Shown here: positions 6,234 through 39,723 of the stretch, piece after piece
How positions within the stretch are numbered: the first letter of the stretch is position 1
Layout of the letters: every line of letters begins with the position of its first letter
Source of the DNA: an uncultured Gammaproteobacteria bacterium
GTDB lineage: Bacteria > Pseudomonadota > Gammaproteobacteria > UBA9214
Length of the DNA: 64,000 nt
NCBI GenBank assembly: GCA_963773065.1
Contig: CAVYZN010000009.1
Span: 128,001 to 192,000, forward strand
Direction of reading: 5' to 3'
Notes under the pieces: model-generated
The model's input: the letters and a program-made list of their open reading frames with translations, nothing else
What the model was told of the DNA's origin: nothing
The model's database searches: none
Translations under genes and position numbers: made by a program

Positions 6234-7046
6234 ATGAATGCAAGCGAACACAGCGCCGCCCCGTCTTCACTGCTCGAACCCGTGGCCGGACTGGCGCGCG
6301 CGGCGGGTGAGAAGATACTCGCGATCTACGACAGTGATTTCGCCATCGAGGAAAAGGAAGACCGCTCGCCGCTCACCGAGGCGGACCTGGCCTCGCACCA
6401 TGCCATCGTCGCCGGCCTGAAGGAGCTGACACCCGGGGTACCGATACTGTCGGAAGAGTCATCCAGCCTGCCCTATGCCGAGCGTTCACTCTGGCAGCGC
6501 TACTGGCTGGTCGATCCGCTCGACGGCACCCGGGAGTTCATCAAGCGCAATGGGGAATTCACCGTCAATATCGCCCTGATCGAAGCGGGTGTCCCGGTGC
6601 TGGGCGTGGTGCATGTGCCGGTCAGCGGCGTGAGCTACCTCGCCTGCCGCGGCCGAGGCGCGTTAAAGCAGGAACCGGGGCGCAAACCCCGGCCCATCAA
6701 GGTGCGCAAGCTGGCGGATGGTCCGGTCATGGTCGTCGGCAGCCGATCACACCGCGGCGATTCACTCAATCGCTTTCTTGAGAATCTGGGTGAGCATGAA
6801 ATGGTCGGCATGGGCAGTTCCCTGAAACTGTGCCTGGTCGCGGAAGGGGCCGCCGACATCTACCCGCGCCTGGGACCGACCTCCGAGTGGGATACCGCCG
6901 CGGCGCAATGCGTGGTCGAACAGGCCGGCGGCCATGTCACCGACACGGACATGCAGCCGCTGCGCTACAACACCAAGGACTCCCTGTTGAATCCCTACTT
7001 CCTGGTGTTCGGAGACGACAGCCGCGACTGGTCGGTGTATCTGTAA
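6234..7046 (+). CDS. cysQ: 3'(2'),5'-bisphosphate nucleotidase CysQ
   Basis: '[11 protein letters not shown]', '[13 protein letters not shown]', '[28 protein letters not shown]'. Confidence 0.95.
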   Translation: [270 protein letters not shown]

Positions 7047-7082
7047 GTGCGTGATGGATCGCAGGGTAGCTACGCCAGGCGC

Positions 7083-7466
7083 TTATCCCGGATCCTGAAT
7101 GCGCGGCTTGATCACACGGGCGAACAACCATACACCCAGCATGCCACCCACCGCATCGGCCATGACGTCATAGATATCCGGTGTCCGGCCGGGTACAAAA
7201 TGCTGGTGAAATTCGTCCAGCACGCCGTAGCCAATCACCAGGCCAACGGCAAGCCAGAGCTGGAACACACGATAGCCCTCCACCGTGGTCTTCATGGCGC
7301 CCAGCGCGAAAAAACCGAGTATGCCGAAGACGATGGCATGGAAGAGCTTGTCCTTGCCGAAAAACAACGGCGGAACATCCACTCCGGGCAGGTGTGAAAG
7401 GTAGAAAATCACGGCTGCCCAGCCCAGGGCGCAGAGCAGGAACAGGTTACGCAAGTTATTTGGCAT
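7083..7466 (-). CDS. VanZ-family membrane protein
   Basis: 'DKLFHA--FG-L', 'DEFHQ-FVPGR----D--AD--G' motifs. Confidence 0.9.
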   Translation of the reverse strand: MPNNLRNLFLLCALGWAAVIFYLSHLPGVDVPPLFFGKDKLFHAIVFGILGFFALGAMKTTVEGYRVFQLWLAVGLVIGYGVLDEFHQHFVPGRTPDIYDVMADAVGGMLGVWLFARVIKPRIQDPG

Positions 7467-7540
7467 GGCGTTATCCGGATTTATCGCACGACCATAAGCA
7501 TATCGATCCGCGGGTGCATGTTACGCCTCGTGACTGCTCA

Positions 7541-8524
7541 TCACCGTGCTTCCTTACGGTGCCAGTCCCAGGCCGTGCGGATGATGTCATCGAGGCGTTC
7601 ATAGCGCGGTTTCCAGCCCAGTTCCGCGCGAATCCGGCCGGAGTCGGCGATGAGAATGGCCGGGTCGCCGGCGCGCCGCGCCGCGGCAAGGGCCGGGATC
7701 GGATGGCCGGTAATCTCCCGCGCGGTATCGATGACCTGCCGGACGGAATAGCCGGTGCTGTTGCCCAGATTGTAGGTCGTATTGCCTCCGTCCTCGAGCA
7801 GGGCTTCCAGCGCCAGCAGGTGCGCCTGAGTGAGGTCGGAGACATGAATATAGTCGCGCAGGCAGGTGCCGTCCGGGGTGGGATAATCCTCGCCGAATAT
7901 GCTGATGGCATCCCGCTCGCCCGTGGCCACCTGGAGCACCAGCGGAATCAGGTGGGTCTCGGGCCGGTGGCGTTCCCCGATGGCCCCGGCGGCATCCGCG
8001 CCCGCGGCATTGAAGTAACGCAGGATGCTGAAGCTCATGCCGGCGGCCGCGCCGACGTCGCTCAGCAGGCGTTCCACCGCGAGCTTGGTCGCGCCATACG
8101 GATTGGTCGGCGCGCAGGGATGCGCCTCGGTAATGGGAGTCCGCCGCGGTTCGCCATACACGGCGGCGGTGGAGGAAAAGATGAAGCGTCTGATGCCGTG
8201 CCGCTGCATCGTCTCGAGCAGGGTGATGGTGTCGGCGACGTTGTTGCGATAATACGCCAGCGGCTTCTCGACCGATTCCCCGACCAGAGACCAGGCGGCG
8301 AAATGCATGACCGCCGCGACCGGATACCGGAGGAAGACCGCGTCAAGATCGGCAGGATTTCCTAGATCACCTTGCACGAAGTCCCCGCCGGGCACCAGCT
8401 CGCGATGGCCGCGGGAAAGGTTGTCCAGTGTGATGACGGGATAACCGGCCCGCAGCAGGTCGAGCACCATGTGCGAACCGATATAACCGGCGCCGCCGAT
8501 GACCAGTATGGCGGGTTTGCTCAT
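7541..8524 (-). CDS. galE: UDP-glucose 4-epimerase
   Basis: GGAGYIGSH, 'FSSTAAVYG', YxxxK, 'LRYFNAAGA', 'DGTC-RDYIHV-DL'. Confidence 0.95.
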   Translation of the reverse strand: MSKPAILVIGGAGYIGSHMVLDLLRAGYPVITLDNLSRGHRELVPGGDFVQGDLGNPADLDAVFLRYPVAAVMHFAAWSLVGESVEKPLAYYRNNVADTITLLETMQRHGIRRFIFSSTAAVYGEPRRTPITEAHPCAPTNPYGATKLAVERLLSDVGAAAGMSFSILRYFNAAGADAAGAIGERHRPETHLIPLVLQVATGERDAISIFGEDYPTPDGTCLRDYIHVSDLTQAHLLALEALLEDGGNTTYNLGNSTGYSVRQVIDTAREITGHPIPALAAARRAGDPAILIADSGRIRAELGWKPRYERLDDIIRTAWDWHRKEAR

Positions 8525-8550
8525 GTCGGTCGTTCCTCAACCCGGCTGTG

Positions 8551-8676
8551 GTAGGGTGCGCCATGCGCACCACGTGCCGCGCACAGGGGTTTTCACGGTG
8601 CGCACGGCGCATGCCACGAAAAAGCCAAACACCTGGACGGTTCCGCAGCGACCATGGTGCGCACGGCGCACCCTAC
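8551..8676. repeat. Cluster of three GTAG-type REPs
   Basis: 8551-8571 forward, 8597-8617 degenerate rc, 8656-8676 rc. Confidence 0.8.
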
Positions 8677-8688
8677 TGGATAAAGCCG

Positions 8689-9957
8689 TCATGTGGGATC
8701 ACGAATCAATAACGCGGAAATCTGCTCCACCAGCAGGCGGCCGAATTCCGGATTACCCCGTCGCAGACTGAGCTTGGTAGCCATGGAGTCGTTTAACAGC
8801 ACCGGTTTGGGCCAGTGATCGAGCAGTTTGCCCAGCGTTGCGGGTAACGGTGTCGCATCCTCGCACCGGTCGATAAGAAGCACATCGTGTTCGGTCAATT
8901 CAAGGCCGCCGAGGAATTGTTCGTTCAATGGGCCGGCGCTGACGACATCGATCCCGTAACTCTCCAGCAGTCTGTTCAGGTACCCGAGCAGTTCCGGCTG
9001 GCCGGCAGCCAGCGCTAGGCGAGCCCTTTTTTTTTAGTGACATCATGGTCCGGTGGTAGGGCGGGTTGCGGATGGGTCTGTGGCGCCGGTTCCGCCCGTG
9101 TGCTGGCGCCGGGCGCCGCGGCGGGCCCGGCGGGATGAAAGGTTGGAAAGATCCCCCCCTGCTGTTTTTCACGGGCCACGTCGGTTACCAGGGCGCTGTC
9201 GATCCGCTCGCACTGCTCGGCATAGCCATAGACCAGCGCCGTATCGCAGAGGAGGTTGATGAGCCGGGGCACGCCATTGCTATAGCGATACACGGCCCGG
9301 CAGGCGGCCTCATCGAACAGGGAGGGGTTGCCGCCCGCGACATCCAGACGGTGACGGATGTAGTCAACGGTTTCCTCCTCCGACAGCGCTTCGAGATGAT
9401 AGTCCACCGCGATACGCTGGGCGAACTGGACCAGATCGGGGCGGCGCAGCGTGTCCCGCAGTTCACGCTGGCCCACCAGGATGACCTGCAGGGCCTGGTC
9501 CTTGTCGGCGTTGACGTTGGAGAGCATGCGCAGTTCTTCCAGCGTGTCGGCGGCCATGTTCTGGGCCTCGTCCACGATCAGCACCACGCGCCGGTTGTGA
9601 GCGTATTCATCGATGATGAAATCGATGAAGCGCCGGTACATCTCGACCTTGCCCAGATTGGCGTGTTCGAGGTTGTAGGCCAGCAGAATCCACTGCAGCA
9701 GTTCGCCAAAGGAACGGTGGGTATTGGTAGATGAGACCCACGGTGTGTTCCCGGTCCATGTGGCCGAGCAGGTGGCGGATCAGCGTGGTCTTGCCGGTGC
9801 CGATATCCCCGCTGATGACCGTAAAGCCGGCCTGGTTTATCAGTCCGTACTCAAGCAGGGTGAGCGCCATGCGGTGCTTGTTGCTCAGAAAGAGAAAACC
9901 CGGATCCGGCAGCAGCGTGAAAGGCTTTTCCCTCAGCTTGTAGAACGACTCGTACAT
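8689..9957 (-). CDS. ExeA/XrtA-system-type AAA ATPase (frameshifted at ~9720; possible C-terminal extension past A9 tract at 9027-9035)
   Basis: 'FYKLREKPFTLLPDPGFLF', Walker A GDIGTGKTT, Walker B 'LIVDEAQNM', 'GVPRLIN-LCD-ALVYGY'; split over ORFs 9607-9957, 9015-9641 and 8689-8928. Confidence 0.8.
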
Positions 9958-9977
9958 GGCGTTGGTAATTGTCTCGC

Positions 9978-10772
9978 TCAGGATGTCTTCGATTCGGCCT
10001 TGTTCAGCACCGTGCCCACGATATTGATGTTGCTGAGGAGTTCGACGGCGCGTTCGACATCCTGCTTTCGCGTCAGGCCTTCCTCGATCACCAGCAGGGC
10101 GGCGTCCACGTAGGGCGAGAAGGCCAGCGCATCCGCCGAGCTCAGGACCGGCGGCAGGTCGAAGATGATAATCCGGCTGTGATAGCGGGATTTCATGTCC
10201 CTGACCAGCCCGGCCATCTTCGGGGAGTTCAGCATCTCCGCCGAATTGGCCAGCGGCTTGCCGCCCGGCAGCAGCACCAGGTGCTCGACCCGGCTCGGCT
10301 GTATCAGCAGTTCCGCCAGGGGGACATCGCCGGTGAGGTAGTCGCTGAGACCCTTGCGCTGGGAAAGGCCGAAATGTTCCAGCATCCAGGGGTGGCGCAG
10401 GTTGGCATCGACCAGCAGCACCGTGTAGTCGACCTCACGGGCGATGCTGATGGCCAGGTTGATGGCGGTAAGCGTCTTGCCTTCACCGTTTCCCGGACTG
10501 GTCACGGCCAGCACATTCCAGTGGTTCTCCTTGAAGCGCTGCAGGATCTGGGTGCGCAGAATGTTGTAGGACTCGGTGAAGGCGCTCGGCTCCAGACCGG
10601 TCACGATGCGGTTTTCGCGTAACACGTCATCATCCAGGGTGATGGACTGGGTCTCGGCGTACTGGATGTCGCCGCTCCCGGTCCGTTGGCCCATGGCCGG
10701 GCCGGGCGCGGCGCCTTGCCTGATCGCGCGCTCCTGGCGCGCCTTCTCCAGGGCCTGTTTGATGCGTTCCAT
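9978..10772 (-). CDS. CpsD/CapB-family tyrosine-protein kinase (EPS/PEP-CTERM-associated)
   Basis: 'MERIKQALEKA' start, 'VTSP--GEGKT--AINLA', 'LLVDANLR-P', 'IIFDLPP', 'GTVLNK'. Confidence 0.9.
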   Translation of the reverse strand: MERIKQALEKARQERAIRQGAAPGPAMGQRTGSGDIQYAETQSITLDDDVLRENRIVTGLEPSAFTESYNILRTQILQRFKENHWNVLAVTSPGNGEGKTLTAINLAISIAREVDYTVLLVDANLRHPWMLEHFGLSQRKGLSDYLTGDVPLAELLIQPSRVEHLVLLPGGKPLANSAEMLNSPKMAGLVRDMKSRYHSRIIIFDLPPVLSSADALAFSPYVDAALLVIEEGLTRKQDVERAVELLSNINIVGTVLNKAESKTS

Positions 10773-10933
10773 AATCTGTCTTTCCTATGAGCCTGTTTTT
10801 ACAGGTAGATAATCTTTATATCCCAGCCACTGATGGCTGTCACGCGCTGTTCGCAAAACGTATCGAAAATCTTAGATGGACATCCTGGTTTTGTGGGTGG
10901 ATTACCTGCAACGATCGTGTTCCCGATAATATC

Positions 10934-12706
10934 CTAACCACCCACGATCGTACCCATCTTCCGCAACACCCGGAACCACAGAACGTCCAGTGGGGAGTAC
11001 AGGAAGTGGATCAGCAGCAGAACAAGAACGAACCCCCCGACTACCCCGGCTAGCATGAGATGCCGTCGTTTGCTTTTGTGACTGATATCCGCGTCACTGG
11101 CGAGGTAGGGTATGACCGCCAGCGGCGCCGTATTGAGGATGGAAACCACCCCCTTGGCGCCCCTCACGGCGGAGTCCATGTTCTCCGCCGTAGCGGCGGA
11201 TCCGATGCCCGCGCCCAGCGCCAGCACCAGGGACAGGAAGATGATGGCGGGACGGTTCGGGCTGACGGGTTCTTCCGGCAGGATGGCGGGGTCGATCAGG
11301 GTGAACTTCTCGCCCTTGCGCTCCTTTTCCATGGACTGCGCGACCTCCGCCGACATCTGCTTGTCCTTGATCTCCTGGTAGCGTTTGGTGTTATTCTCAA
11401 AATCACGGACGAGTCCCCGGTATTCGCGTTCAACCTGGGGGGTCTGTAGCAGGCGTTGTTCATATTCGGCCAGTTTATCGCTGAGTGTTGCCCGCTTGGT
11501 TTTAAGCGCAGTGATATCGCTGTTGGTGGCTTCCAACTGTGACTGCAGAGTAATATACGCGGGATTGTCCGGGGTTACCGGCGCTGCTTTCGGTGCCGCC
11601 TTGGCACCCGGCTTGCGGAGTATCTTCTTCGAGCGAGGCAATCTGGCGTTTCAGGCTTTTCACGTCCGGATGTTCGTCCGTGTAGGTTTTTTCCGCGATG
11701 ACCAACTCCTTGCGCAGCGCATCCAGCCGTGCAGCGTTTCTCCGACGATGTTTCGGTGATGCCGGTTTCCTTCTCCAGCGCCTCGATTTCCCGCTTTTGG
11801 CTGATGCACATCCGGATGGTTGGGCGAATAGCGGCTGGCATTACTGATATATTCCGTGCGCAATTCCGCCAGTCTGGCGCCCGGACTCTGGACGGTGCCG
11901 GAACCGTAGGGGTCGAGGATGGCCAGTTGTCCTTCCAGGTAGGTTTTCCGCTCCTCCAGTGAGCGCATCTGGGTATCATTATCGCTGATCTCGTTTTCCG
12001 TACGCTGGAGGACCTGCGTGTTCAAGTCCCTCAGTTCAGGCAACTTGTTGGCATTCTTTTCCTTGAATTCCGCCAGGGCGGTTTCCAGGCGGGAGATTTC
12101 CGCGCTCAGACGCTTGGCCTCTTCCGTCAGGAAGGTGGTGGTTTCCTCCGCCTTCTCGGTGCGCGTCCTCAGGTTCTCATTCAGATAGAGTGTCGTCAGT
12201 TCATTGGCGACTTTCTGCACCAGTTGGGGGTCTTTACCTTTAAAGCCGACCGTGAAGGCGATGGTGGCCGCCGTCGGGTGGCCGGTGCGCGGGTCCATCA
12301 CGTCTGCGTTGATCATGTCGAGCTTGATGTCATCGCGCATGTCGGCAAGGACTTCTTCCGTCGTTTCACGTTTGCGCTTGCTCTGGTACAAACCGTATTT
12401 ATCCATGATTTCCAGAAGATTACTGCGGGTCATGACGCGCTGGCTGATGACCTGGATACGTTCCGAGGCATAGCTGGTGACGGTGGACTGGATCAGTTCA
12501 GACGGAATTTCCTGTTCCTCGATCAGGATGGTGGCCGATGATGCATAGGTGGGCGGCCAGACAAAGGCGGTGATGAGTCCCAGGATGAAAACGATCCCGG
12601 CGATCAATATGATCATGCCCCGCCGGCGGCGAAAGGCGTCGAGGTAATCCCCGAGATCCAGTGTCTGTTCGAGTGCAAGTTCAGCCATGGGTGTCTTGTC
12701 CAGCAT
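10934..12706 (-). CDS. Wzz/Wzc-type polysaccharide chain-length determinant (frameshifted)
   Basis: Two TMs flanking coiled-coil, 'Y-PNHPDV', 'YTDEHPDV', 'GEKFTLIDPA-LPE-PVSPNR'. Confidence 0.85.
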
Positions 12707-12761
12707 CAGGTGTAATGGCAGGTATTTCGGGATGATCCGGAAATACCTTGGAAATAAGAGG

Positions 12762-14040
12762 TTAACGGGAGGTGAATATCTTAGTAGGTCGGTAGGTGAG
12801 CGTCAAATAGACCGCATTTTGCGTAGCGGCATCGCCGTTGGTGTTTTTACTCTCGGAATACTGAGTACTCACCGTCCAGTGTCCACTGTGGTTGCCATTG
12901 CCAGGCGATACTGGGCTGGATTCTGAAAAAATTATTGGGTTTTGTCTGCAAGTTGCCCCCCGATGAATTGACGATGGTATCCTGCTTATAGTAATCGACC
13001 GACAGGCGGGAGGTCAGGGTTTCCGTGAAATGGTGCTCCCCGGTCAGGGATAGATGCGTGGTATCGAGGAGCCCTCCGGTGCCGCTCGGTGTGGCAAGAC
13101 GTGACGCGGAAGCGCTCAGACTGCCTCGTTCCAGTGACTTGGTAATACTTGCCGAGTACACCGCGCCGGTGTTATTGACTTGTTCCGTGTCCGTTCCCGT
13201 CTGAACGGGAAAGCCGCCATTACATTTCGGGAAACTGGCGCCGGGGTCCGCCCCCACACAGAATCCCGTCGGTATCAGGGTATCCGAGGTGGTCTGGCGC
13301 CAGCCCGCCAGCCACGAGGTGGACACTGTCTCGCTATGTTGCCTGGTTAGGCCGACCTGAATCGCATAGGTATCGGAGTTGAGGTTTGTTTCCGGTAGAT
13401 AGTGGCTGAATGATGTCGATACGGTCCCTTGAGTGAGCGGCGTGAACTGACGAATCAATGACGCAGAGGCGGTATTGAAGTCATAGTTGACCAGGCTGGA
13501 CTGTCCGACTATATCTGAATAGTCGACCCGGTTGAATGCGTAGTCCAGATCCAGTTGGGTCTTTTCATTGAGGCTTCTTGTCCAACTGGGATTCAGGACG
13601 GTGCTCAAGCGGGTGGCAATATTTTCGATCACCTGGCCAGTCTGGGTCAGTTCCGAGTCGAGCGTGCTGTCCTGGGTGATATCCACATTGGCCCCAAAAT
13701 TATTGCGCTCGGTCTGTTGATAGGAGTTGACATTCAGGTGATAGTCCTCCCGGTCCAGCAGGTTGCTGCTGGTATCGCCGCTGCCGCCATAGAAGCGCAC
13801 GATCGAGACGTCCGCGTTTCCGAACAAGCCCCTGGTTTTCGTTTCTACGCCAAATTTGACGGCGGGCGTAAGGTCCGCTTCCCACACCGAATCATGAGGC
13901 GCCGTGGTCAGCCGGTAGTTGTCGTTGTAGCCAGAGCGCAGGGAAACCGTCGGCTCCGCCGACCATTCCGCCGCCCACACGGATTGCGACAAGGCCAACA
14001 GCAAGGTCAGTGGCAGGCTTGGAACATAAACGATGCGCAT
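12762..14040 (-). CDS. EPS-associated outer-membrane beta-barrel protein (C-terminal frameshift)
   Basis: Signal peptide, 'AEWSAEP-V-LR-GYNDNYRL', alternating beta-strand pattern; alternative frame ends 'AVYLTLTYRPTKIFTSR*' at 12762. Confidence 0.75.
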
Positions 14041-14122
14041 CAGCTAGATCGATTTCTTGGCCAGAAAACGTTTCTATGCAATGGGCGAATCTTGTGTCTT
14101 TGTTCATCCCTGAAAATATCTG

Positions 14123-14264
14123 TTTTCCGTGTATTTCCGTGTGCTTCGAAGTTCAGGGACGAACAAGTGTCGCGGGAGGCAGGAAGCCGGAAGCGACCCG
14201 TGGCCATTAAATTATCTTTTCTCGCATATCACTTCTCACTTCATTACCTCTTACTCTTTCCTTC
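14123..14264 (-). repeat. Composite element arm after wza stop (heptamers + TAATGGCCACGG arm with level-1 hairpin insert)
   Basis: Reverse complement matches 59719-59790. Confidence 0.8.
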
Positions 14265-14842
14265 TCACGGCACCACCACCACATCCCCGCTCTGCAGGAT
14301 GATGTTCTGCTCCAGGTCCTCTCCTTTCTCGATATCGCCATAGCGGAACGGGATTGATACCTCTTTCCCATTTTCCCGGCGCAGCACGATAATCTTGTTG
14401 TCGGCGGCATACGGTGTCATGCCACCCGCCACACTCAGCGCCTGCACGACGTCCATATACCGGTTAGCCAGAAATTCTCCAGGTTTAGTAACCTTTCCGA
14501 TCACGTAGATCTTATTGCCATCCAGCTTCAGCATGGCCACCGTCACAACCGGATCCGGAATATATTTCGTGAGCCGTTCGGTAATCATCTCCTGCAGACT
14601 CCGCAACCGATTTGCCCGCGGCCTGAATGTCGCCCGCCAGGGGAAACGACATGCCGCCATCGGGTCTGACCATGACCTGCTTCAGAAGGTCTTCTTCTTT
14701 CCAGACGGAGACTTCAAGAATGTCTCCGGGTTGTATTTTGTAGGTTGTTATCACCAGCAGCGCCATCATCGGCCAGGGCGAGCTGAAGTGACTGGAATGC
14801 CAGAATCGCAATCAGTAATACCGTCGGTGATTTAGCCATCAT
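14265..14842 (-). CDS. wza: Polysaccharide export protein Wza/Poly_export-SLBB (frameshifted)
   Basis: 'YKIQPGDILEVSVWKEEDL---V-VRPDG-MSFPLAG-I-AAGK', 'IYVIGKV-KPG', 'LQSGDVVVVP'. Confidence 0.85.
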
Positions 14843-15177
14843 TGGATCCCAAATTTCCCCAGGGTGGATTGCAGATAACCATAGATCGTTTCAGTCTGGG
14901 TCGATAGTATCGTTTCTTTATCGATCAGTGGAGTGAAACAATTGCTGAATTTTAATGATTCAATCAAATAGTCCCATGCCCGTCAACCTAAATGACGGAT
15001 TTCCTGGGATTGTATCGTTTTCCGTGTGTGGGTGCGTGTACCTCCGGGCCTGTTTCAATGGCTACACCTTTGGTGAACTTCTGTCCGTGCGATTTGAATG
15101 AACTGGCCTGAATTCATCGAGTCCGCGTTTTGCAACCGCTGATGGTCTCTGAGTGGCGGTAATGAACAAGAGTAATT

Positions 15178-17472: not shown

Positions 17473-17500
17473 GATTACATGCCCTTCGCCCCGGTTCTTC

Positions 17501-21677: not shown

Positions 21678-21711
21678 AAAAAACGGCGTAGCCATTTCTG
21701 GCTACGCCGTT
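21678..21711 (-). terminator. Intrinsic terminator of surface protein A
   Basis: AACGGCGTAGCCA-tttc-TGGCTACGCCGTT hairpin followed by T-run on the minus strand. Confidence 0.85.
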
Positions 21712-21733
21712 GCCAATCATACAGACAGGTTAT

Positions 21734-24211: not shown

Positions 24212-24337
24212 GGGAAACGACCTCCTCATCTACAGAATAATTATCATGCGGCCTTGCCGGGCAGGTATGTCAGTGCCGAGGGTTCCGCGACTGTTGTTCG
24301 TATGTTCGGGGCAGTTGCGATGTGCAAGGTATGCCTG

Positions 24338-25645: not shown

Positions 25646-25961
25646 CAAGCACTCCTCCGGATATTTAGGGTCTTTTTGGGACTTATTCATCCATCGTCAA
25701 GCCGGCAGACTACGCATGTGACCGTAACCTGGGTGACTCCATATCAGTATCAAACCAGGTGTTTATTTCCTCGACTCGAGGTTTTTATGCTGAATTTTGG
25801 TATGGTTCTCTTTAAGGTCCTTTGTTATCAAGCTGGTTCTTTCTTGGTTTGTTATTTAGACCTTAAGATAGTGACAACGAATTATTAGGATGCAGGGATA
25901 GTGTATAGGCGGTCGCGTTTTGTCAAGGCTGCCGGCGGAATTTATCGTTAGAGCATATCGT

Positions 25962-32093: not shown

Positions 32094-32109
32094 TGGCATG
32101 GGCATTGCT
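32094..32109 (+). promoter_or_regulatory. Sigma54 -24/-12 promoter
   Basis: TGGCATGGGCATTGCT = GG-N10-GC consensus, ~150 bp upstream of the 32258 ATG, with AT-rich tract between it and the boxes. Confidence 0.75.
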
Positions 32110-32257: not shown

Positions 32258-32999
32258 ATGAACATCAAAAAAACTGCCCTTGCCACAGCTCTTGCGACTG
32301 TCATGGGTTTTACCGCAGTCGCCGCACAGGCCGCCGCGGTTGTCAATGGTGATACACTGAATATCCAATCTCCCACATTAGATGCCAGTGGGTATGTTGT
32401 TACCGGCAGCGGTTCCTACTTCGCTATGGATAACAACGCTAACAGTAAGATTGCCAATACTGAGAAGGTTGGACTCTCACAAGGGCACCACCGGTCTCGT
32501 CATCGGCGTGACTACTTCGGCCGGCGCCAGCCACGGCGGCGCGCCGACCGGCGGCGACACCAATGCCATCGATGCCCCGTGGGGCTTCTTTGGCAACACC
32601 GGCAGCGACTACGTGACCGTCGGCGTCACCGGCAGCACCACCGCCGGCCTGGGCATGAGCGGCTGGACCGTCACCTGGAACGGCATCGCCGCCATTCCCA
32701 TGGGCACCGGCGCTTGGACGGCTGTCACTGGCGCTGGTTCCACCGGCGCCACGGGTACTTTCGCCAATGGCGTGGGCAGGTTCACTTGGGATGGCGTGTA
32801 TGGCGACGCCTACACCCTGGACTACCATGCGACCGTGCCGGTCGGCGATCCCTCCGGCTTCGGTGGTGTGAAGTACGAACTGCACCTGCAGGGCCTCGTG
32901 ACCGAACCCGCTCGTCCCGGTCCCGGCTGCTGCCTGGCTGTTCGGCTCGGTCTGATGGGCTTGGTGGGCATTGCCCGCCGCAAGACCAGACAGGTCTAA
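32258..32999 (+). CDS. Surface protein B: signal peptide + 'GDPSGFGGV' domain + VPLPA-CTERM (PEP-CTERM class) tag (frameshifted)
   Basis: RBS GAGAGGAG; signal 'MNIKKTALATALATVMGFTAVAAQA'; from 32914 reads VPVPAAAWLFGS then GLMGLVGIARRKTRQV*. Confidence 0.85.
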
Positions 33000-33012
33000 G
33001 CGATCGAGTAAC

Positions 33013-33371: not shown

Positions 33372-34319
33372 ATGTATCGAAACAGAATAGTGCGGCATAG
33401 CGGTGTGACGGTCTACGTGCGCCTGGGCGCTATGGCGTTGCTGCTGCTCGGCTGGCTGATCGGCCTGGGTGGCTGCACCGCCGTCAATACCTTCCCGATG
33501 GCGGCGCGCTCCGGCGACACGATTTCGGTCATGATCGGCGGCAGCGAGCTGGCGCGCAAGGAAACCATCGGCGCCGTGCTCACGGATGCATCAGGCGGGC
33601 AGCATGACCTGCAGGCGCTGGGGCTAGTGCGCTCGGTGTTCAACCTGCGCCCCGACGGACGTGCCGAGGGTTTGCATTATTCCGACTACCTGGATACGTA
33701 CATCTCCTGGTTCTTCGGGCATGAACCGGTGCAGACGGTGCTGGTGGCGGACCTGCCGACGGGCCTGCCGCCGGGTATCGCCACCCTGGCGGTGAATCTG
33801 AACGCATCCGACAACAGTTCCGGTATCGGTGACCCGGCGCGCATCAAGCTCGAAGTGCTTAGCGGCGCCGGCGCAGCAGATTCCTTTTTGCGGAAAACCA
33901 CACAAGGTCCGACGCCGGCCGATCTCCTGGCCCTGGAACCCGCGCCCTACGCCAAGCTGACCTTCCCCGCCGGGGCCATCATCGGTGCGGCCGATCTGGT
34001 GATCGATGTCGATCAGTCCGCCGTCAATCTGGACGATCTGAATGTCTATGTGCCGGAGTCGACCGTGCGCGGCTCGGTTGGAGATCCCGGCGCCTTCGGC
34101 GACAAGCAGCGCATGGTGTACTGGCATCATGACACTAACCGGCTATATATCGACATTGTTGCGCCACAAGGTATCGATGGCCGTTTTCTGATGCTTTACG
34201 TCATGCACCCGCGCGATTTGCCGGCTTCGCCCAACTTCGCGCTGAACAGCGCCACGGTGTATGACCTCAACGGACAGCCGCAGTCGATACAGCCGGTGCT
34301 GACCTATATGCCGAACTGA
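33372..34319 (+). CDS. Hypothetical lipoprotein
   Basis: Hydrophobic stretch ending in lipobox-like 'LGGC'; beta-rich body; intact 315-aa ORF. Confidence 0.65.
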   Translation: MYRNRIVRHSGVTVYVRLGAMALLLLGWLIGLGGCTAVNTFPMAARSGDTISVMIGGSELARKETIGAVLTDASGGQHDLQALGLVRSVFNLRPDGRAEGLHYSDYLDTYISWFFGHEPVQTVLVADLPTGLPPGIATLAVNLNASDNSSGIGDPARIKLEVLSGAGAADSFLRKTTQGPTPADLLALEPAPYAKLTFPAGAIIGAADLVIDVDQSAVNLDDLNVYVPESTVRGSVGDPGAFGDKQRMVYWHHDTNRLYIDIVAPQGIDGRFLMLYVMHPRDLPASPNFALNSATVYDLNGQPQSIQPVLTYMPN

Positions 34320-34510: not shown

Positions 34511-34633
34511 CAGTGCCATTCGGGTCATGGGCCGATCGGTGCAGTGGCGTCTCCGGTCCATTCTATCGTTGCCCGGTTGGGCGCTGCTACGGCCGGATGT
34601 CCACAACCCGTGAATGATCGGTTGAGATAGGCG

Positions 34634-36322
34634 ATGAAGCGTACGGCGCCCGATGCGGGGCTGGGACAGTTGCTGGAGTTGTTCCAGGCGGGGCGGCTGA
34701 TCGAGGCGCGCGCGCTGGGACAGCAACTCGGCAAGTCTTTATCGAAGCATCCACAGTTGTTGAATCTGCTTGGCGCCATCCATGGCCGTCTGGGCGAGTT
34801 CGCTCAGGCGGAATCCTGTTATCGGACCCTGTGCTCGCTCGAACCGAAGTCCCATGAATATCGGTATTACCTGGGCATGGCGCTGATCATGCAGGGCCGG
34901 CTTCAGGAGGCCGTGGCGCCTTTCATGGAAATGCTGCGGCTTCAGCCGGAGTTCGCGCAGGGTCATATGCAGATGGGGTGTCTGCTGCGTGATCTTGGTC
35001 ATCACGATGCCGCGATCAGGCATTTCGAACAGGCGTTGCGGCTGAATCCCGCCCTGGCGGATGCCGCCGTGTTTCTGGCCAACCTGCTGGTTTTTCGCGG
35101 GCAGTTCGATCCGGCCTTGCGCTGGCTCGACCGCGCGCTGCAACTGCGTCCCGATCATCAGGATGCCCTGGCCGCCAAAGCGCTGCTGCTGGAAAAGCGC
35201 GGTGAGCCGGCGGCGGCCTGGGCCTGCATCCAGCCGGCGCTTGCCGCGCCGGTCCCGTCGCCCGGGCTGGCGATCGCCTACGCCACGCTCGGCGCCGCGC
35301 CATGAGCAGAGTGCGTCCGCGCAGGCCCTGCTCAAACGGGTGTTGTCCCGTAACGATCTGGCGCCCTCCCAGCGACAGGAACTGCATTTCGCGCTGGCGG
35401 GCCTGTGCGATACGGCCGGGGAGTACGATGCGGCCTTCGAACATTATCATGCCGCCAATGCGCTGAATCGTTTCCCCTTTGATGTCGCCGCATTGCGTGA
35501 CAAGGCGGAACGTGTCATGCGCTTCTTCGCCGAGGTCGAAGTTCCCATCTGTGACGGTGCGCGCGGGAGAAGGCCCCAGCCCGATTTTCATTGTCGGCAT
35601 GCCGCGCTCGGGCACCTCCCTGATCGAACAGATTCTCGCCTGTCATCCGGATATCGCCGCGGGAGGGGAGCTGGAAACGATGGCGGAGATCGAGCGCGAC
35701 ATGCCGGGTCTGCTGGGGCGATCGGAGTCTTATCCCGACTGTTTGCGCGGGGCGACGGCGGCCGGGCTGGAGCCGTTGGCGCGGCGCTATCGGGAGCGGA
35801 TCGCCGGGATCTCCCAGGGGCGCCGCTATGTGACTGACAAGCTGCCGGGCAATTACGAGCGGCTGGGGCTGATTGCCAGCGCTCTTCCCGGATGCGCGCA
35901 TCGTGCACATGCAACGTGATGCGCGCGATACCTGCCTGTCGTGCTATTTCCAGAATTTCGTCAATACGCAGGCGTACTCTACGAACCTCGGCGCGCTGGG
36001 CGAGGTTTACAAACTATATGAAGCAATGATGAAGCGCTGGCGCGAGATATCGCCGATCGGAATCCTGGATATTCGTTATGAGGCTCTCGTTGATCATCCC
36101 GAGGAAACGGTTAAGAAATTGCTGGCCTTTTGTGATCTGCCATGGAACGCGAAATGCCTCGAGTTCCATAAATCGGATCGCTACATCAATACGGCCAGCT
36201 ATGCTCAGGTCAGAGAGCCTATTTATCATCGTTCGGTCGGCCGGTGGAAGAACTATGAGTCGCACCTGGGAGAGTTGATTGCTGCACTATCGAGACAACC
36301 TCAAAGTGGATCACCTGCATAA
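34634..36322 (+). CDS. TPR-containing sulfotransferase 2 (frameshifted)
   Basis: TPRs; 'PIFIVGMPRSGTSLIEQIL-CHP', 'TDKLPGN', 'RDARDTCLSCY', 'TASYAQVREPIY--SVGRWKNY'. Confidence 0.88.
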
Positions 36323-36380
36323 AACTGCGGCATGACTGACCTTCATAATTACCAGTAAACAATGTCCTTATGGGCGCTGG

Positions 36381-36985
36381 TCAGCGAAAAGCTGGGCCAT
36401 GCACCCAGGCAACAATAGCGTGGCGTGTACCTCGTGACACCGGCGTGACACGATGCCCAAGGAAGGATGGGAATACAATAACCGAACCCTGATTATTATC
36501 GCCTACACCCCCTCCCCCAGGAATTCAAGCTGACCACCGTCGTAGTCTGCGGGATCGGAAAGTTGCAGGCTGATGCTCAGTTTGCGAGTAGATTCACGGC
36601 CTGGTCCGAGATCGATATGCCAATCGTAATGTCCACCATCAGTATAGGAAGCATATTGGAACATCTCGAATCCTTGAAGATCGTATCGGTACTGCTGATT
36701 CACAAATTCGACGAGCTTTTCCATTTTCGCGAATACCCATTCCGTTTTGTCGGTTGGTGGAAGGTAGCGTACCACTGACTTACGGATACGATACTGGGTT
36801 TCCCAGTTGTCCGCCTCCGTACTCCTGCTGATACGACCTTCTATCGGCTCCAGGGACTGCCCAATCGAATTGATCTGTTCACATTCTTGCTTTGTGAAAC
36901 AGCCCTGAATAGAGGCATAGAGGGCTACATGATCATTGCGCCAACGTGCTACTTGAGATTCCAGATACCGGCAAACAAGACTCAT
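36381..36985 (-). CDS. 2OG-Fe(II) oxygenase, prolyl-hydroxylase/PKHD-like (frameshift ~36505)
   Basis: 'HYDWHID…RKLSISLQLS---YDGGQLEF', then 'GSVIVFPSFLGHRVTPV-RGTR--IVAW--GP-FR*'. Confidence 0.85.
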
Positions 36986-37152
36986 ATCTTCACCTGCATA
37001 TTAAAATCACAGTTATGATCCGCCACGACAGGCTCATGGTCTCTAGACTAACGAGGAATTGAAGGCTGCACACCCGTTATGGGTTTGTATTTTATTTTTT
37101 ATCGAGGCTTGTCATCTCGATGAGATAGCGCCGTTCGAAATTGACAGGCGAT

Positions 37153-38928
37153 TCATGCCGCATGCTCGCACCACTTCTTCCACATGACACGGTAGGCATC
37201 TTCAACCGACGTCGTAAAATCTTTCTCGGCGCACAGCGGTGAAGTCGAAACCCGCTCGCGCAGGGATGCGCGCAGTCGCGCCAATTCATTCAGGTCGTTG
37301 GCCAGATCCACGGCACGGCGGATATAGTCGTCCGGTGAGTGCGCAACCAGGTCGGCGAGTCCCGCCTGCGATAACAAACTCATACCCACGCGACTCGCGT
37401 GTATGGCCCCTGCCAGGGTGACCACCGGAATCCCCATCCACAGCGCTTCGCACGTGGTGGTGGTGCCATTATACGGAAAGGTATCCAGCGCAATATCAAC
37501 CTTGCCATAAACATTCATATGGCCGGACTGCGACGGCACCGGGCCGAGCAACTCAAGACGTTCTGTATCGACGCCGTGTTCGCCAAAACTCCGGTAGCAA
37601 ATCTGTCGCGTTCCGGCATCGCCGAAAGAGGGGTTTTTCATGATAAGGCGCGCACTCGGCAGCGCCTGCAGAATCGCGGCCCACGTCGAAACAACCTGCG
37701 GGGTGACTTTCATGAAATTATTGAAAGAGCCAAAGGTAACGCTGCCGCGGGTACTGGCGGGCAGCGAGGTGATCTCAGGGGCATCCTCCAGGCAGCGATA
37801 ACAGAGGAAGCCCTGCGGCAGTCGTATGAGCGTCTCCGTGTGGTAGATCTCCGTAGTCCCGGGGGGATCGGCCCATGCGTCCGTAAATCGGTAATCCATG
37901 GCTGGAATTCCGGTGGTATTTGGATAGCCGAGGTAAGTCACTTGAATCGGGGCAGGCTTGGCGGTGAACACCATGAGACGGTTGTCTGTGTTATGACCTG
38001 CAAGATCCACCAGGATGTCGATACGGTCGGATCGAATCCGCTCGACGAGTGCGGCGTCGCTCATGCCACGGGTGTTTAACCAATGCTTCGCTATGGCGCG
38101 CAGCCTTTCGGTGACAATGTCCGGTGTGACCTCCTCGGCGTAACAGTAGGTTTCCACCTGCTCTGGATCGTGGTTGGCAAGTAGCGGCTCGAAGAAGGAT
38201 ACGACCGAGTGCCGGTGCAGGTTCGGGGATACGTATCCGATGCGCAACTTGCGGTCCGGATTGCGGTTATTAGGGTGTTTGTGAATGGGTTGCGTGCCCA
38301 GTTGATGAGTTTGACCCCAGCGAAGGTGTTCTGCATAGATCGAGGCCGCGTCGTAGTCGGCGCTGTAATTCAAGGTGCTGACCAGATCGCTGTGTATCTG
38401 GTGGGAGCGTGGCTGGAGGTTTAATTCATGCCGGTAACACGATACCGCGCCGGCAATTTGTCCGCGCCGCTGAAGGATGCAGCCTATCAAGGCGTGCACC
38501 TCGGGAATGCCCGGCGCCAGCGCCACCGCCCGTTGATAGCATGCCAGCGCCTCGTCATATCTGTCTTGCAGGTGAAACACCTTGCCGAGTTGCACGTTCG
38601 CCGGCACATGGGCTGGATTGATCCGCAATACGCGATGAAATACATCAGCGGCTTCATCGTGCCTGGCCTGCAGCAGAAGCGCGCACGCCAGATGATAATG
38701 GGCATCGACTGACCCGGGTTGGATGGCGATGATCTCGCGACAACATCGTTCAACCTCAGACGCCTGGCCCAGTTGCGCATGGATCTGCGTCAGGCAGATC
38801 CATGTCTCCATATCGCTGGGATCCAATCGAGACACTTCGCCAAAAAGTTCTTTGGCTTTCAGCAATCTGTTATTTTGAAAGTAGGCCATCGCCCGCTTTT
38901 TTTTCTCATTCAGTAACAGATGACTCAT
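37153..38928 (-). CDS. TPR + GT41 (SPINDLY-like) glycosyltransferase, copy 4
   Basis: Intact 591 aa; 'LRIGYVSP', 'PAPIQVTYLGYPNTTG', 'TFGSFNN--K', 'DTFPYNGTTTTCEALWMG-PV'. Confidence 0.92.
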   Translation of the reverse strand: MSHLLLNEKKKRAMAYFQNNRLLKAKELFGEVSRLDPSDMETWICLTQIHAQLGQASEVERCCREIIAIQPGSVDAHYHLACALLLQARHDEAADVFHRVLRINPAHVPANVQLGKVFHLQDRYDEALACYQRAVALAPGIPEVHALIGCILQRRGQIAGAVSCYRHELNLQPRSHQIHSDLVSTLNYSADYDAASIYAEHLRWGQTHQLGTQPIHKHPNNRNPDRKLRIGYVSPNLHRHSVVSFFEPLLANHDPEQVETYCYAEEVTPDIVTERLRAIAKHWLNTRGMSDAALVERIRSDRIDILVDLAGHNTDNRLMVFTAKPAPIQVTYLGYPNTTGIPAMDYRFTDAWADPPGTTEIYHTETLIRLPQGFLCYRCLEDAPEITSLPASTRGSVTFGSFNNFMKVTPQVVSTWAAILQALPSARLIMKNPSFGDAGTRQICYRSFGEHGVDTERLELLGPVPSQSGHMNVYGKVDIALDTFPYNGTTTTCEALWMGIPVVTLAGAIHASRVGMSLLSQAGLADLVAHSPDDYIRRAVDLANDLNELARLRASLRERVSTSPLCAEKDFTTSVEDAYRVMWKKWCEHAA

Positions 38929-39075
38929 GCCAAAAGAACCTCATACCGACACCGGCCACGACATGGCGAGGCTAGTTGTACAGCGCTATTCCTGATTTTC
39001 ACGGCCCTGGCCGATGCAGTTGTGGTCACAGCCCATATCGCATGAGAGTCGGGCAGTTAAGTTGTTATTCATTTG

Positions 39076-39723
39076 TTAGCTGATTTTTCCATGGCAATGT
39101 TTGAACTTTTTCCCGCTACCGCAGGGACAGGGCTGGTTACGCCCAGTTTCCTTATTCATTGATGCGTCAGTTGACTCGGAACTACGGCGTTTTTCGGCAA
39201 TCATATTCAAGCTGATTGGTACTCCCTTGAATATCATGGAACTCGTGTCATTGAACAAACCAAAAACTTTCACCCTTTTTATATTTACATATCCAGAGGT
39301 ATTGAGGAATTCAGTGAGAAATTCTTCATTTAATCCGACGACGTGATAGTCGTATTTATCTATGTGGCCTCCAAAGATCATGCGCATGACAAAGAACCGT
39401 TCCCCAACGGTTAGCTTGTTCTTCGCCAGAATTAACCCCGCGAGCGTATCCAGGTCGGGAACGCTGATGAATACTCTTCCGCCTGGTTCGAGAACCCTGT
39501 TCCATTCTTTGAGGGTATCCGTCAGTTCACCGTTATAGTCGAGATGTTCGACGACGTGAGATGCGTATATTTCGGTAAATGTGTTATCAGCAAACTTAGA
39601 TAGATTATTAGCATTACAGACATGATCGACATAGGGGGCTGGTATCGCATTCAAAACCTCCCACCCATCGGATTTAATCTGCCCACCTATGTGCAATCTT
39701 CTAGGCATTGGCGCTGTACTCAT
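39076..39723 (-). CDS. SAM-dependent methyltransferase with C-terminal SEC-C motif
   Basis: 'RRLHIGG', 'IYASHVVEH', 'EW-RVL-PGG---ISVPD'; 'GRNQPCPCGSGKKFKHCHG'. Confidence 0.85.
   Translation of the reverse strand: MSTAPMPRRLHIGGQIKSDGWEVLNAIPAPYVDHVCNANNLSKFADNTFTEIYASHVVEHLDYNGELTDTLKEWNRVLEPGGRVFISVPDLDTLAGLILAKNKLTVGERFFVMRMIFGGHIDKYDYHVVGLNEEFLTEFLNTSGYVNIKRVKVFGLFNDTSSMIFKGVPISLNMIAEKRRSSESTDASMNKETGRNQPCPCGSGKKFKHCHGKIS

Follow-up and report, generated by a model that had tools for sequence, protein, structure and literature searches.

The window analysed here, 64,000 nucleotides of contig CAVYZN010000009.1 from an uncultured gammaproteobacterium, contains a module in which TPR-fused enzymes predicted to be cytoplasmic, above all sulfotransferases, may tailor sorted surface proteins before export, a reading that we hold with moderate confidence. 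It rests throughout on neighbourhood and homology. Which genes the module holds, which families they belong to, that active-site residues are conserved and that the neighbourhood recurs are established; what the enzymes act on, by which chemistry and at what stage, is inferred. As part of the same reading, and with equal reserve, the module, which has the export genes on one side and aroQ-accBC on the other, is placed as a variable accessory part of an XrtA/PEP-CTERM exosortase-exopolysaccharide locus. The features are listed with their coordinates and strand.

6234–7046, +: cysQ-type 3'(2'),5'-bisphosphate nucleotidase, which removes PAP (PF00459, E 6.5e-53); conserved flank
7541–8524, −: galE-type UDP-sugar 4-epimerase (PF01370, E 3.7e-59); conserved flank
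8695–14742, −: XrtA/PEP-CTERM exopolysaccharide genes, several frame-disrupted
15176–17553, −: GT41 no. 2, TPR and OGT-type catalytic domain, interrupted (PF13844; tblastn to GT41 no. 1)
17475–19778, −: GT41 no. 1, intact, 767 aa, TPR and OGT-type catalytic domain (PF13844, 288.8 bits)
19966–21192, −: secreted protein, intact, 408 aa, with signal peptide, shared domain and Ig-like C-terminal part (from the translation)
~21700–24175 (approximate), −: large secreted protein with two domain copies and at least 5 frame changes (three-frame reading)
24338–25690, −: FadL/OmpP1-family outer-membrane protein, a porin (PF03349, E 2e-19)
25905–27485, +: SEC-C motif, TPR and SAM methyltransferase, at least 2 frame changes (TPR Pfam matches)
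27655–29740, −: GT41 no. 3, N-terminal SEC-C, TPR and SPINDLY-type catalytic domain, one frame change (PF13844, PF02810)
29789–31595, −: TPR-sulfotransferase no. 1, one frame change (PF13469, 133 bits)
32094–32108, +: sigma-54-like -24/-12 motif, deviating from the consensus at one position, 164 nt ahead of the PEP-CTERM gene
32258–32999, +: small secreted protein with a PEP-CTERM tail and the shared domain behind a signal peptide; frame changed at least 1 to 3 times
33372–34319, +: predicted lipoprotein, 315 aa, of no known family (lipobox-like Cys after a hydrophobic N-terminus)
34634–36322, +: TPR-sulfotransferase no. 2, three frame changes (PF13469)
36503–36985, −: 2OG-Fe(II) oxygenase, probably cut by a frame change (PF13640, E 3.2e-07)
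37153–38928, −: GT41 no. 4, intact, 591 aa, TPR and SPINDLY-type catalytic domain (PF13844)
39076–39723, −: SAM methyltransferase with C-terminal SEC-C motif (PF08241, PF02810)

All gene classes of the preliminary description were recovered, at or close to where it had placed them, from open reading frames, Pfam matches and tblastn. The genes at 8695–14742 encode an ATPase, a tyrosine autokinase, a chain-length determinant, an outer-membrane protein and an export protein; their top NCBIfam matches (TIGR03015, TIGR03018, TIGR03007, TIGR03027) all lie under the cut-off, on truncated open reading frames. The GT41s number four, two OGT-type and two SPINDLY-type. According to tblastn against the 3.84-Mb genome, the GT41 matches, both TPR-sulfotransferases and all four copies of the shared domain occur in this window only, a confinement that exceeds chance placement. 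The cysQ and galE genes, earlier counted in the enzyme set, are present but are assigned to the conserved flank and not to the island. Both keep their syntenic place in G001, a genome of the same genus without the enzymes at this site: cysQ is 85% identical there and adjoins XrtA locus genes in G200 and G224 too, and galE is syntenic in G001, G014, G017 and G200. A further island, with transposases, occupies 42.5–50.5 kb.

At least 24 frame disruptions fall in 8.7–42.5 kb, and most genes of the module are hit. Their confinement to this interval, with none in 1–8.5 kb or 50–64 kb as measured against G001, and the apparent splitting of one GT41 in the isolate Thiohalobacter as well, would fit genuine disruptions and a module in decay, no longer active in this organism. 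Such decay, a matter separate from the question of function, appears rather unlikely: all five coding indels alignable to G001 DNA are 1-nt insertions outside homopolymers, three of them within 185 nt of one gene, most frame changes are +1, large deletions are absent, and the source genome, assembled in 33 contigs, has 90.9% completeness and 6.3% contamination. The disruptions look like assembly errors, and a poorly polished stretch fits them better than natural decay.

Among characterised enzymes, those closest to the module's own are all protein-modifying (SPINDLY/OGT, human TPST1/2 and, weakly, prolyl 4-hydroxylase). The catalytic half of GT41 no. 1 has its best matches in the OGTs of Drosophila, Xanthomonas and human (E 1e-71 to 1e-75; SPINDLY, 1e-44), and GT41 no. 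2 is 65% identical to it over 746 aa in one tblastn alignment that spans the disrupted middle stretch. GT41 nos. 3 and 4 share 35–45% identity. The top PDB match of no. 4 is Arabidopsis SPINDLY (E 2.5e-132), and at the positions aligned with SPY H495, S496, N661, K665, H728, Y744 and T747–749, a residue list taken from PMC9715652, the two are identical; the fucose-selective Tyr of the SPINDLY active site is kept in the alignment. Similarity of these GT41s to NGT is weak (40.7 bits with a cut-off of 1000; PDB E about 1e-9). For the catalytic domain of sulfotransferase no. 1 the best solved matches are human TPST2/TPST1 (E 1.8e-14), a moderate similarity of 57 bits within a family, PF13469, that also covers non-protein sulfotransferases (the CurM domain and, as a weak match, NoeE); the PRSGTTL PAPS motif is kept in the TPR-sulfotransferase. 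The methyltransferase half of 25905–27485 is collinear with a G014 homologue, with the SEC-C motif at 25983. Just profile positions 1–50 of the 98 in PF13640 are covered by the 2OG oxygenase, whose PDB matches, to PiuC (1.4e-4) and prolyl 4-hydroxylase (0.0097), are weak. Three of the six SEC-C motifs of this genome are on island enzymes, and the motif is also found on two GT41s of locus L055. The earlier remark that the enzymes are without signal peptides agrees with their N-termini as read by eye, the sole basis for it. As supply genes the genome encodes APS kinase, gmd, SecB and an XrtA that scores near the cut-off; xrtA is on another contig, together with non-TPR sulfotransferases, gmd and APS kinase.

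The candidate substrates are three secreted proteins with four copies of a ~170-aa domain that matches no Pfam or NCBIfam model; it is undescribed, probably beta-barrel-like, and rare, being present in 3 of 400 class-level genomes and, among 1.84 billion representative proteins, in 522. The 19966–21192 protein is without a sorting tail or a Pfam or NCBIfam match and has full-length homologues in G224 and G161. The large protein combines its two domain copies with repeats of cadherin-like type and ends in a Cys-containing tail; it is collinear with an intact 878-aa protein of locus L028. Among the three paralogues the PEP-CTERM tail is confined to the 32258 gene, the tail of the large gene being of the different, Cys-containing kind. 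The tail of the 32258 gene reaches 22.3 bits against an HMM made from tails of this genome, and the tails of intact orthologues pass TIGR03370. Of the roughly 15 PEP-CTERM genes that the genome holds, just one lies next to the enzymes. A sigma-54-like motif precedes 5 of 13 enzyme-adjacent PEP-CTERM genes, compared with 0.023 expected per 400 nt, and in at least 9 of 14 loci a FadL-like protein forms a pair with Cys-tail proteins. The lipoprotein has no Pfam or NCBIfam match; the modules of G224 and G200 contain homologues 55–59% identical to it, and weaker ones are present in G002, G014 and G017.

The test proposed at the outset was whether homologues of the shared domain recurrently have TPR-GT41 and TPR-sulfotransferase genes as neighbours, and the sulfotransferase half is borne out: in metagenome loci collected by the domain, a sulfotransferase is present in 9 of the 15 long loci (15 kb or more) and in 19 of all 77, as it is in G224, whereas GT41 is found in 0 of 15 and 3 of 77. 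The long loci also contain FadL-like proteins (13) and PEP-CTERM tails (12), with XrtA export genes within reach in just 4. Some of these sulfotransferases have an N-terminus like that of TPR-sulfotransferase no. 1. Eighteen of the 25 sulfotransferase open reading frames in the domain-first loci are complete at the 5' end; all 18 are 537–951 aa, long enough to leave room for an N-terminal TPR-like extension, none has a signal-peptide-like N-terminus, and the PAPS motif lies at residues 296–450 wherever the search pattern matched. Starting from the SPINDLY-type GT41, the best 80 loci among at least 588 relatives include 7 with the domain, from several gammaproteobacterial lineages, and 5 of these 7 also have sulfotransferases. 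PEP-CTERM tails occur in 7 of the 16 sulfotransferase-bearing loci of this set and in 3 of the 64 others, a comparison made with a detector tuned to proteobacterial tails while the sulfotransferase-free loci include many other phyla. All such counts overstate independence, since the loci are phylogenetically related and many are metagenome contigs from similar samples.

Individual genomes differ in what they combine. G224 has two sulfotransferases, a GT41-like gene, the lipoprotein, FadL, three PEP-CTERM tails and XrtA locus genes in ~30 kb; G200 has two GT41s, two methyltransferases, the lipoprotein and FadL; and L055 interleaves in tandem, in 16 kb, seven PEP-CTERM paralogues, two GT41s, one sulfotransferase and two methyltransferases. 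Among 40 relatives, domain and GT41 are found together in G001 only, on different contigs, and the domain-bearing G003, G013 and G022 have no GT41 match. At the syntenic site of G001 the FadL gene and a three-domain protein are kept, with no enzyme within ~20 kb. In all four relatives' loci compared (G002, G017, G014 and contig C24 of G001) a small PEP-CTERM gene stands beside a GT41, a sulfotransferase or both; these adjacent PEP-CTERM proteins are without the shared domain and mutually dissimilar except for signal peptide and tail.

On the preferred reading, the TPR arrays would bind unfolded precursors of the domain proteins in the cytoplasm. The enzyme set would comprise the TPST-like sulfotransferases, adding sulfate to Tyr or to an attached sugar; the SPINDLY- and OGT-type GT41s, O-glycosylating Ser/Thr, with fucose as the probable sugar of the SPINDLY type; the SAM methyltransferases, methylating the precursors; and the P4H-like oxygenase. 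The modified proteins would then leave via Sec and be sorted by exosortase or by a Cys-tail route. The exported set would consist of the small proteins with domain and PEP-CTERM tail, behind their sigma-54-like promoter motif, the pair of two-domain Cys-tail protein and FadL, and the lipoprotein. Of the cytoplasmic tailoring of surface proteins first suggested for this DNA, the recurrence of sulfotransferase with domain and the protein-modifying relatives of the enzymes speak for retention; GT41 as a constant partner does not survive, and the enzyme-free site of G001 also counts against the suggestion, as do the polysaccharide export genes that the module always has next to it.

Several known systems resemble parts of the module. 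HMW1C/NGT, a GT41 member, is likewise a signal-peptide-free enzyme of the GT41 fold encoded beside an exported protein that it modifies before export, but it has no TPRs and N-glucosylates Asn, unlike the TPR-bearing SPINDLY/OGT-type enzymes here, and its cargo is two-partner secreted and not PEP-CTERM sorted. Plant SPINDLY, a protein O-fucosyltransferase, and animal and Xanthomonas OGT share the architecture of TPR plus GT41; they act on nucleocytoplasmic proteins, whereas the candidate substrates here are exported, and two of the present GT41s are described with an N-terminal SEC-C motif. TPST1/2 share the PF13469 fold family and PAPS-binding motifs and are the best solved relatives. The TPSTs are Golgi-lumen enzymes, whereas the sulfotransferases here are fused to long TPR arrays, predicted to be cytoplasmic and present in several copies per locus, with Tyr or sugar as the putative acceptor. 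Among bacteria, RaxST is a protein-tyrosine sulfotransferase acting on RaxX, and it is to our knowledge without TPRs.

With the PEP-CTERM/exosortase (XrtA) system as given in the available text of Haft et al. 2006 (PMC1569441), the module shares the tail on the small domain proteins, the upstream sigma-54-like motif, the adjoining XrtA-associated EPS genes and an XrtA-like gene in the genome; as that text presents it, the system comprises no GT41, sulfotransferase or methyltransferase, and neither the Cys-tail/FadL pair nor the shared domain belongs to it. OGT enters there solely by way of comparison with the TPR protein PrsT, and the text does not voice the view, previously taken as established, that PEP-CTERM proteins are presumably glycosylated. 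Hydroxylation followed by sulfation of secreted glycine-rich proteins is already in print as a related prediction (Iyer et al. 2010, PMC2938197), for operons in which 2OG oxygenases, sulfotransferases and methyltransferases are encoded with secreted Gly-rich or collagen-like proposed substrates; the portion of that paper available names no GT41, TPR-sulfotransferase fusion, PEP-CTERM sorting or this domain. The synechan xss cluster, in what could be consulted of PMC8205485, likewise encodes sulfotransferases with polysaccharide export genes, but also Wzx, Wzy and eight polymer glycosyltransferases, where the islands here have none and carry GT41s and sorted proteins instead.

The main rival is that the enzymes tailor the exopolysaccharide or lipid-linked repeat unit of the adjacent XrtA machinery, the polymer being sulfated, methylated and fucose-containing and the secreted proteins co-regulated matrix components. 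Wza/Wzc-like export genes, galE and cysQ abut the module in G000, G014, G017, G200, G224 and Thiohalobacter, the sulfotransferase weakly matches NoeE, a sugar sulfotransferase, and the sources as available to us report sulfotransferases in an EPS cluster as established for synechan of Synechocystis (PMC8205485) and sludge EPS rich in sulfated glycoconjugates whose responsible enzymes are not known (PMC10483923). We nevertheless judge it unlikely, since all solved GT41 matches are protein glycosyltransferases, a TPR array is ascribed to every enzyme, the solved structures closest to the sulfotransferase are TPSTs, and the islands lack a polymer-building glycosyltransferase (the gene map shows no Wzx, Wzy, GT2 or GT4 gene inside them). 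The non-TPR sulfotransferases, gmd and APS kinase beside xrtA could serve the polymer, and the metagenome sulfotransferases track the domain proteins, with XrtA export genes seldom near.

The targets could instead be other proteins, whether PEP-CTERM cargo in general, the export machinery or cytoplasmic regulators, which are among the targets of eukaryotic OGT and SPINDLY, the neighbourhood then reflecting co-regulation in a biofilm regulon. SPINDLY-type GT41s are indeed widespread: their relatives, at least 588, span many phyla, the domain is missing from 73 of the best 80 loci, and the adjacent PEP-CTERM proteins of G001, G002, G014 and G017 are domain-free; the joint recurrence of domain and sulfotransferase in the metagenome and the tandem interleaving of enzymes and domain genes in L055 nonetheless make this quite unlikely. 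That unrelated accessory genes have merely piled up in an insertion hot spot between the EPS locus and aroQ-accBC would agree with the lower G+C of the islands (0.50–0.56 against ~0.60–0.63 in the flanks), their absence from G001 and the neighbouring transposase-bearing island, but it is very improbable, as the combination recurs across different families in different gene orders.

A search of the literature available to us found no published description of the module. The recurring pairing of its enzymes with proteins carrying an undescribed domain suggests a putative pathway that would decorate surface proteins.

The assembly comprises 33 contigs and 3.84 Mb, with a completeness of 90.9% and a contamination of 6.3%, and the window lies on its contig C9 (CAVYZN010000009.1). 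A gene map of the window, built from Pfam, NCBIfam and tblastn, contains the following features:

359-2807: gspLMN-like genes, assigned by reading translations only and syntenic with G001, a genome of the same genus
6234-7046: cysQ
7541-8524: galE
8.7-14.7 kb: putative XrtA-associated exopolysaccharide (EPS) genes, for an ATPase, a tyrosine kinase, a chain-length determinant, an outer-membrane protein and an exporter
15176-17553 and 17475-19778: two OGT-type TPR-GT41 genes
19966-21192: secreted protein of 408 aa
about 21.7-24.2 kb: large secreted protein
24338-25690: FadL-like porin
25905-27485: SEC-C + TPR + methyltransferase
27655-29740: SEC-C + TPR + GT41
29789-31595: TPR-sulfotransferase
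32258-32999: small secreted PEP-CTERM protein
33372-34319: predicted lipoprotein, matching no family
34634-36322: another TPR-sulfotransferase
36503-36985: 2OG oxygenase, partial
37153-38928: SPINDLY-type TPR-GT41
39076-39723: methyltransferase with a C-terminal SEC-C motif
from 40137: aroQ, accB, accC

Since this map recovers the gene classes listed in the preliminary description, that inventory is correct. No GT41 catalytic domain, TPR-sulfotransferase or copy of the secreted domain shared by three of these genes was found elsewhere in the genome. Between the gsp genes and cysQ lie a 510-aa ORF (3009-4541), which has a counterpart ORF in G001, and a Cys-rich ORF of 146 aa (4907-5347), the DNA of both being syntenic with G001. 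A further island at 42550-50484, missing from G001, encodes three transposases (DDE_3, Y2_Tnp, DDE_Tnp_1) and two methyltransferases of the FkbM family.

Judged against orthologues or paralogues, the 8.7-42.5 kb stretch contains at least 24 frame changes, and the syntenic stretches at 1-8.5 kb and 50-64 kb have no frame change relative to G001. All five coding indels that are alignable to G001 DNA are insertions, and because these are of a single base, fall outside homopolymers and include three that are packed into 185 nt of the gene for the chain-length determinant, the 8.7-42.5 kb stretch is probably poorly polished sequence rather than a region in decay.

The shared domain, present in the window as four copies of about 170 aa each spread over the three secreted-protein genes, has no match to any Pfam or NCBIfam model in any of these copies. 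A profile of ten copies yielded 522 matches at E ≤ 0.001 among 1.84 billion representative proteins and, as judged by sequence comparison, the shared domain is a new domain family. When the architectures of the best 150 of the 522 matches were sorted by length, a PEP-CTERM tail was detected with a narrow HMM in 40 of the 54 proteins shorter than 300 aa, many proteins of 300-560 aa were found to be like the 408-aa window protein, and 27 of the 51 proteins of at least 560 aa contained a Cys-containing tail recognized by a regular expression. The AlphaFold model of the domain is all-beta with a mean pLDDT of only 65.7, and the best-conserved motif falls in a low-confidence loop. Comparison of this model with the PDB using Foldseek produced nothing better than E 0.19; the best VIA-align score, Z 7.3 to 8-stranded barrels (NspA, OmpW, YceI-like), is within the common range for the tool, and the possibility that the domain is itself such a barrel is therefore treated as a lead only. 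For the lipoprotein encoded at 33372-34319, the best protein-atlas score, 0.83, was uninformative.

As in the XrtA/PEP-CTERM system, cargo in this module possesses a C-terminal PEP-CTERM-type sorting domain. Two intact small orthologues from other bacterial loci (L028:5032-5763 and L020:16595-17074) score 29.5 and 30.7 bits with the VPLPA-CTERM model TIGR03370 (cut-off 25.35) and 13.9 and 15.2 bits with TIGR02595 (cut-off 16), and the frame-disrupted tail of the window gene 32258-32999 reaches 22.3 bits when scored by an HMM of tails from its own genome, which encodes about 15 PEP-CTERM genes. A sigma-54-like motif with one mismatch is located 164 nt upstream of the 32258 gene, and such motifs also precede 5 of 13 comparable enzyme-adjacent cargo genes elsewhere (expected, 0.023), in agreement with the sigma-54-type motif upstream of PEP-CTERM genes that is reported by Haft et al. 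(PMC1569441). The EPS genes at 8.7-14.7 kb have TIGR03015, TIGR03018, TIGR03007 and TIGR03027 as their best NCBIfam matches, all below cut-off, with ORFs that are frame-truncated. An XrtA-like gene on contig C6 (C6:36722-37489) reaches 201 bits on TIGR03109, against a curated cut-off of 208, and is found together with gmd (608 bits), APS kinase and non-TPR sulfotransferase matches within 32.8-82.6 kb of that contig, a region that may be the main exosortase/EPS locus, with a polymer that may itself be sulfated.

The GT41 domain (PF13844, cut-off 25) follows TPRs and scores 288.8 and 184.8 bits in the intact genes; fragments of the two disrupted GT41 genes pass the cut-off as well. The gene at 37153-38928 matches Arabidopsis SPINDLY with E 2.5e-132 and, in a HMMER alignment to 7y4i that covers this gene only, is identical at SPY K665, N661, H495/S496, T747-749 and Tyr744, residues involved in GDP binding, catalysis and fucose selection, with Tyr744 as the fucose gate (PMC9715652). 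OGTs are the best matches of the gene at 17475-19778. Identity with HMW1C/NGT N-glycosyltransferases was rejected, on account of both the NF049992 scores (40.7 and 29.9 bits, where the cut-off is 1000) and the presence of TPRs on the window GT41s. A TPR-sulfotransferase scores 133 bits (cut-off 27) with PF13469, a family that includes CurM-type and sugar sulfotransferases besides TPST-like ones; among solved structures, the catalytic domain matches TPST1/2 (E about 1e-14), more weakly CurM-type enzymes, and nothing else. It keeps the PAPS-binding motifs known as 5'-PSB and 3'-PB: its PRSGTTL segment is identical to that of TPST2, and two of its residues, an Arg and a Ser, line up with the 3'-PB segment of TPST2. 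The 2OG oxygenase fragment (36503-36985) bears a weak likeness to P4H/PiuC. Supply genes encoded in the genome include APS kinase, gmd and SecB.

Some module enzymes bear a SecA-type SEC-C zinc motif at their N- or C-terminal end, both in the window (25983, 29716, 39129) and in two loci of other bacteria, L055 (4515 and 11969, N-terminal on two GT41s) and L026 (1068). Three of the six SEC-C motifs in the genome are on island enzymes, the others being on SecA and two small ORFs. Through these motifs, the module enzymes concerned may dock to SecB or the ribosome.

In the window (21700-25690) and in loci L015, L018, L021, L025, L028, L034, L047 and L107, with variants in L033 and L083, a gene for a FadL-like outer-membrane protein forms a pair with one whose product ends in a conserved, Cys-containing tail. 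In this tail, a Gly/Ser-rich run is followed by a Cys, some 15-20 residues, a hydrophobic helix rich in Trp and a cluster of basic residues. The pairing is seen in at least 9 of 14 FadL-bearing loci, and no NCBIfam sorting-signal model matches the Cys-containing tails at E ≤ 1; the pair may represent an undescribed sorting system. Small CPBP/CAAX-like membrane ORFs, assigned by reading, occur near the pair in L033 and L095.

The distribution of the module was explored from several starting points, with locus counts that are not phylogenetically independent. By synteny, the two stretches that contain every one of the enzymes, 14.9-21.7 kb and 25.7-40.0 kb, are absent from the corresponding site of G001, which keeps FadL and a three-domain protein. 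Among 40 relatives, the shared domain was found in 4 genomes and GT41 in 12, and only G001 has both, on different contigs. Other genomes of the family carry versions of the module: in G017 and G014, the space from the XrtA genes to aroQ-accBC is occupied by FadL, the lipoprotein and TPR-sulfotransferases, accompanied or not by GT41 and methyltransferases, and in G002 and on G001 contig C24 a small PEP-CTERM gene is adjoined by GT41 and/or sulfotransferases. A search starting from GT41, which covered the 80 best of at least 588 relatives, revealed a sulfotransferase homologue in 16 loci and the shared domain in seven (Thiobacillus, Thiogranum, four more gammaproteobacterial MAGs and one MAG labelled only Proteobacteria), five of which also contain sulfotransferases. 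PEP-CTERM tails, counted with a detector that favours Proteobacteria, were present in 7 of the 16 loci with a sulfotransferase versus 3 of the 64 without.

Searches starting from the domain itself found it in 3 of 400 genomes of the class; in G224 and G200, the two in which the contigs are long, the module again lies next to XrtA genes. In metagenomes, a scan with a 4-row domain alignment recovered 77 loci. The 15 that are at least 15 kb long include FadL in 13, a PEP-CTERM tail in 12, a sulfotransferase in nine and GT41 in none; for all 77, the numbers are 19 with a sulfotransferase and three with GT41. Thus FadL, PEP-CTERM sorting and TPR-sulfotransferases are the constant partners of the shared domain, and GT41 is a lineage-specific addition to the module. 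The expectation that homologues of the domain would repeatedly be neighboured by both TPR-sulfotransferase and TPR-GT41 genes is accordingly borne out in part: the former recur beside the domain, and the latter are not a constant partner. The sulfotransferase ORFs of these metagenome loci that are complete at the 5' end (18 of 25) are all 537-951 aa long with a long N-terminal extension, and none of the 18 has a signal-peptide-like start.

The densest version of the module that we saw is L055, a 16.3-kb contig of an uncultured gammaproteobacterium, on which two SEC-C-TPR-GT41 genes, one sulfotransferase and two methyltransferases are interspersed among seven genes for PEP-CTERM proteins, at least five of which have the shared domain. 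On one contig of Gammaproteobacteria HyVt-541 (L034 and L057, about 3.5-51.5 kb), the module stretches over some 48 kb and sums to four GT41s, six sulfotransferase homologues, a methyltransferase, the lipoprotein, FadL and both classes of domain proteins.

Because sorted proteins are recurrently interleaved with TPR-fused, signal-less homologues of protein-modifying enzymes, the reading that best fits these neighbourhoods is that such enzymes would tailor the sorted proteins before export. Parallels are known in the action of HMW1C on HMW1, in the autotransporter heptosyltransferases and in the glycosylation of flagellin. Alternatively, the module enzymes might act on polysaccharide instead of proteins, an idea that stays alive because the module sits beside EPS export genes. 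We nevertheless regard action on polysaccharide as unlikely: xss-type sulfated-EPS clusters combine Wzx/Wzy and polymer glycosyltransferases with their sulfotransferases, whereas the islands at 14.9-21.7 and 25.7-40.0 kb contain no Wzx/Wzy or polymer-building glycosyltransferase ORF. Glycosylation of flagellin or pilin at this locus was rejected, as no such gene is present among the ORFs scanned at 1-50 kb.

Taken further, pre-export tailoring could amount to a dedicated bacterial pathway for sulfating a cell's own surface proteins before export, with O-fucosylation/O-glycosylation and methylation added in some lineages, a proposal that we consider possible but rather doubtful. Unfolded PEP-CTERM and Cys-tail cargo would be captured in the cytoplasm by TPR-fused TPST-like sulfotransferases and SPINDLY/OGT-type GT41s, some module enzymes would be recruited to SecB or the ribosome via their SecA-like SEC-C zinc motifs, and a matrix of sulfated glycoproteins would result.

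Protein tailoring before export and exosortase sorting are processes of already known kinds; what is new here is the shared domain family and, possibly, the Cys-tail/FadL sorting pair. Our literature search found no work that connects PEP-CTERM or exosortase to GT41, nor to sulfotransferases in a tailoring sense. The nearest printed idea found is a prediction by Iyer et al. 2010 (PMC2938197) of hydroxylase/sulfotransferase/methyltransferase operons acting on secreted glycine-rich proteins.

The module bears on the chemistry of exosortase cargo, and bacterial SPINDLY-type GT41s have no demonstrated function in the literature examined. To our knowledge, protein sulfation is nearly unknown in bacteria, RaxST acting on RaxX being the sole case that we can name. 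The module supplies concrete candidate genes, candidate substrates and an undescribed domain family of about 520 representative sequences, and a related module has a cultured carrier, Thiohalobacter thiocyanaticus Hrh1, whose locus L095 comprises two PEP-CTERM genes, two TPR-sulfotransferases, FadL and a split GT41. According to PMC10483923, the matrices of sludge and biofilms commonly contain sulfated glycoconjugates for which no biosynthetic genes are known; if the proposed pathway is real, the module would be one source of these unexplained sulfated glycoconjugates in environmental biofilms.
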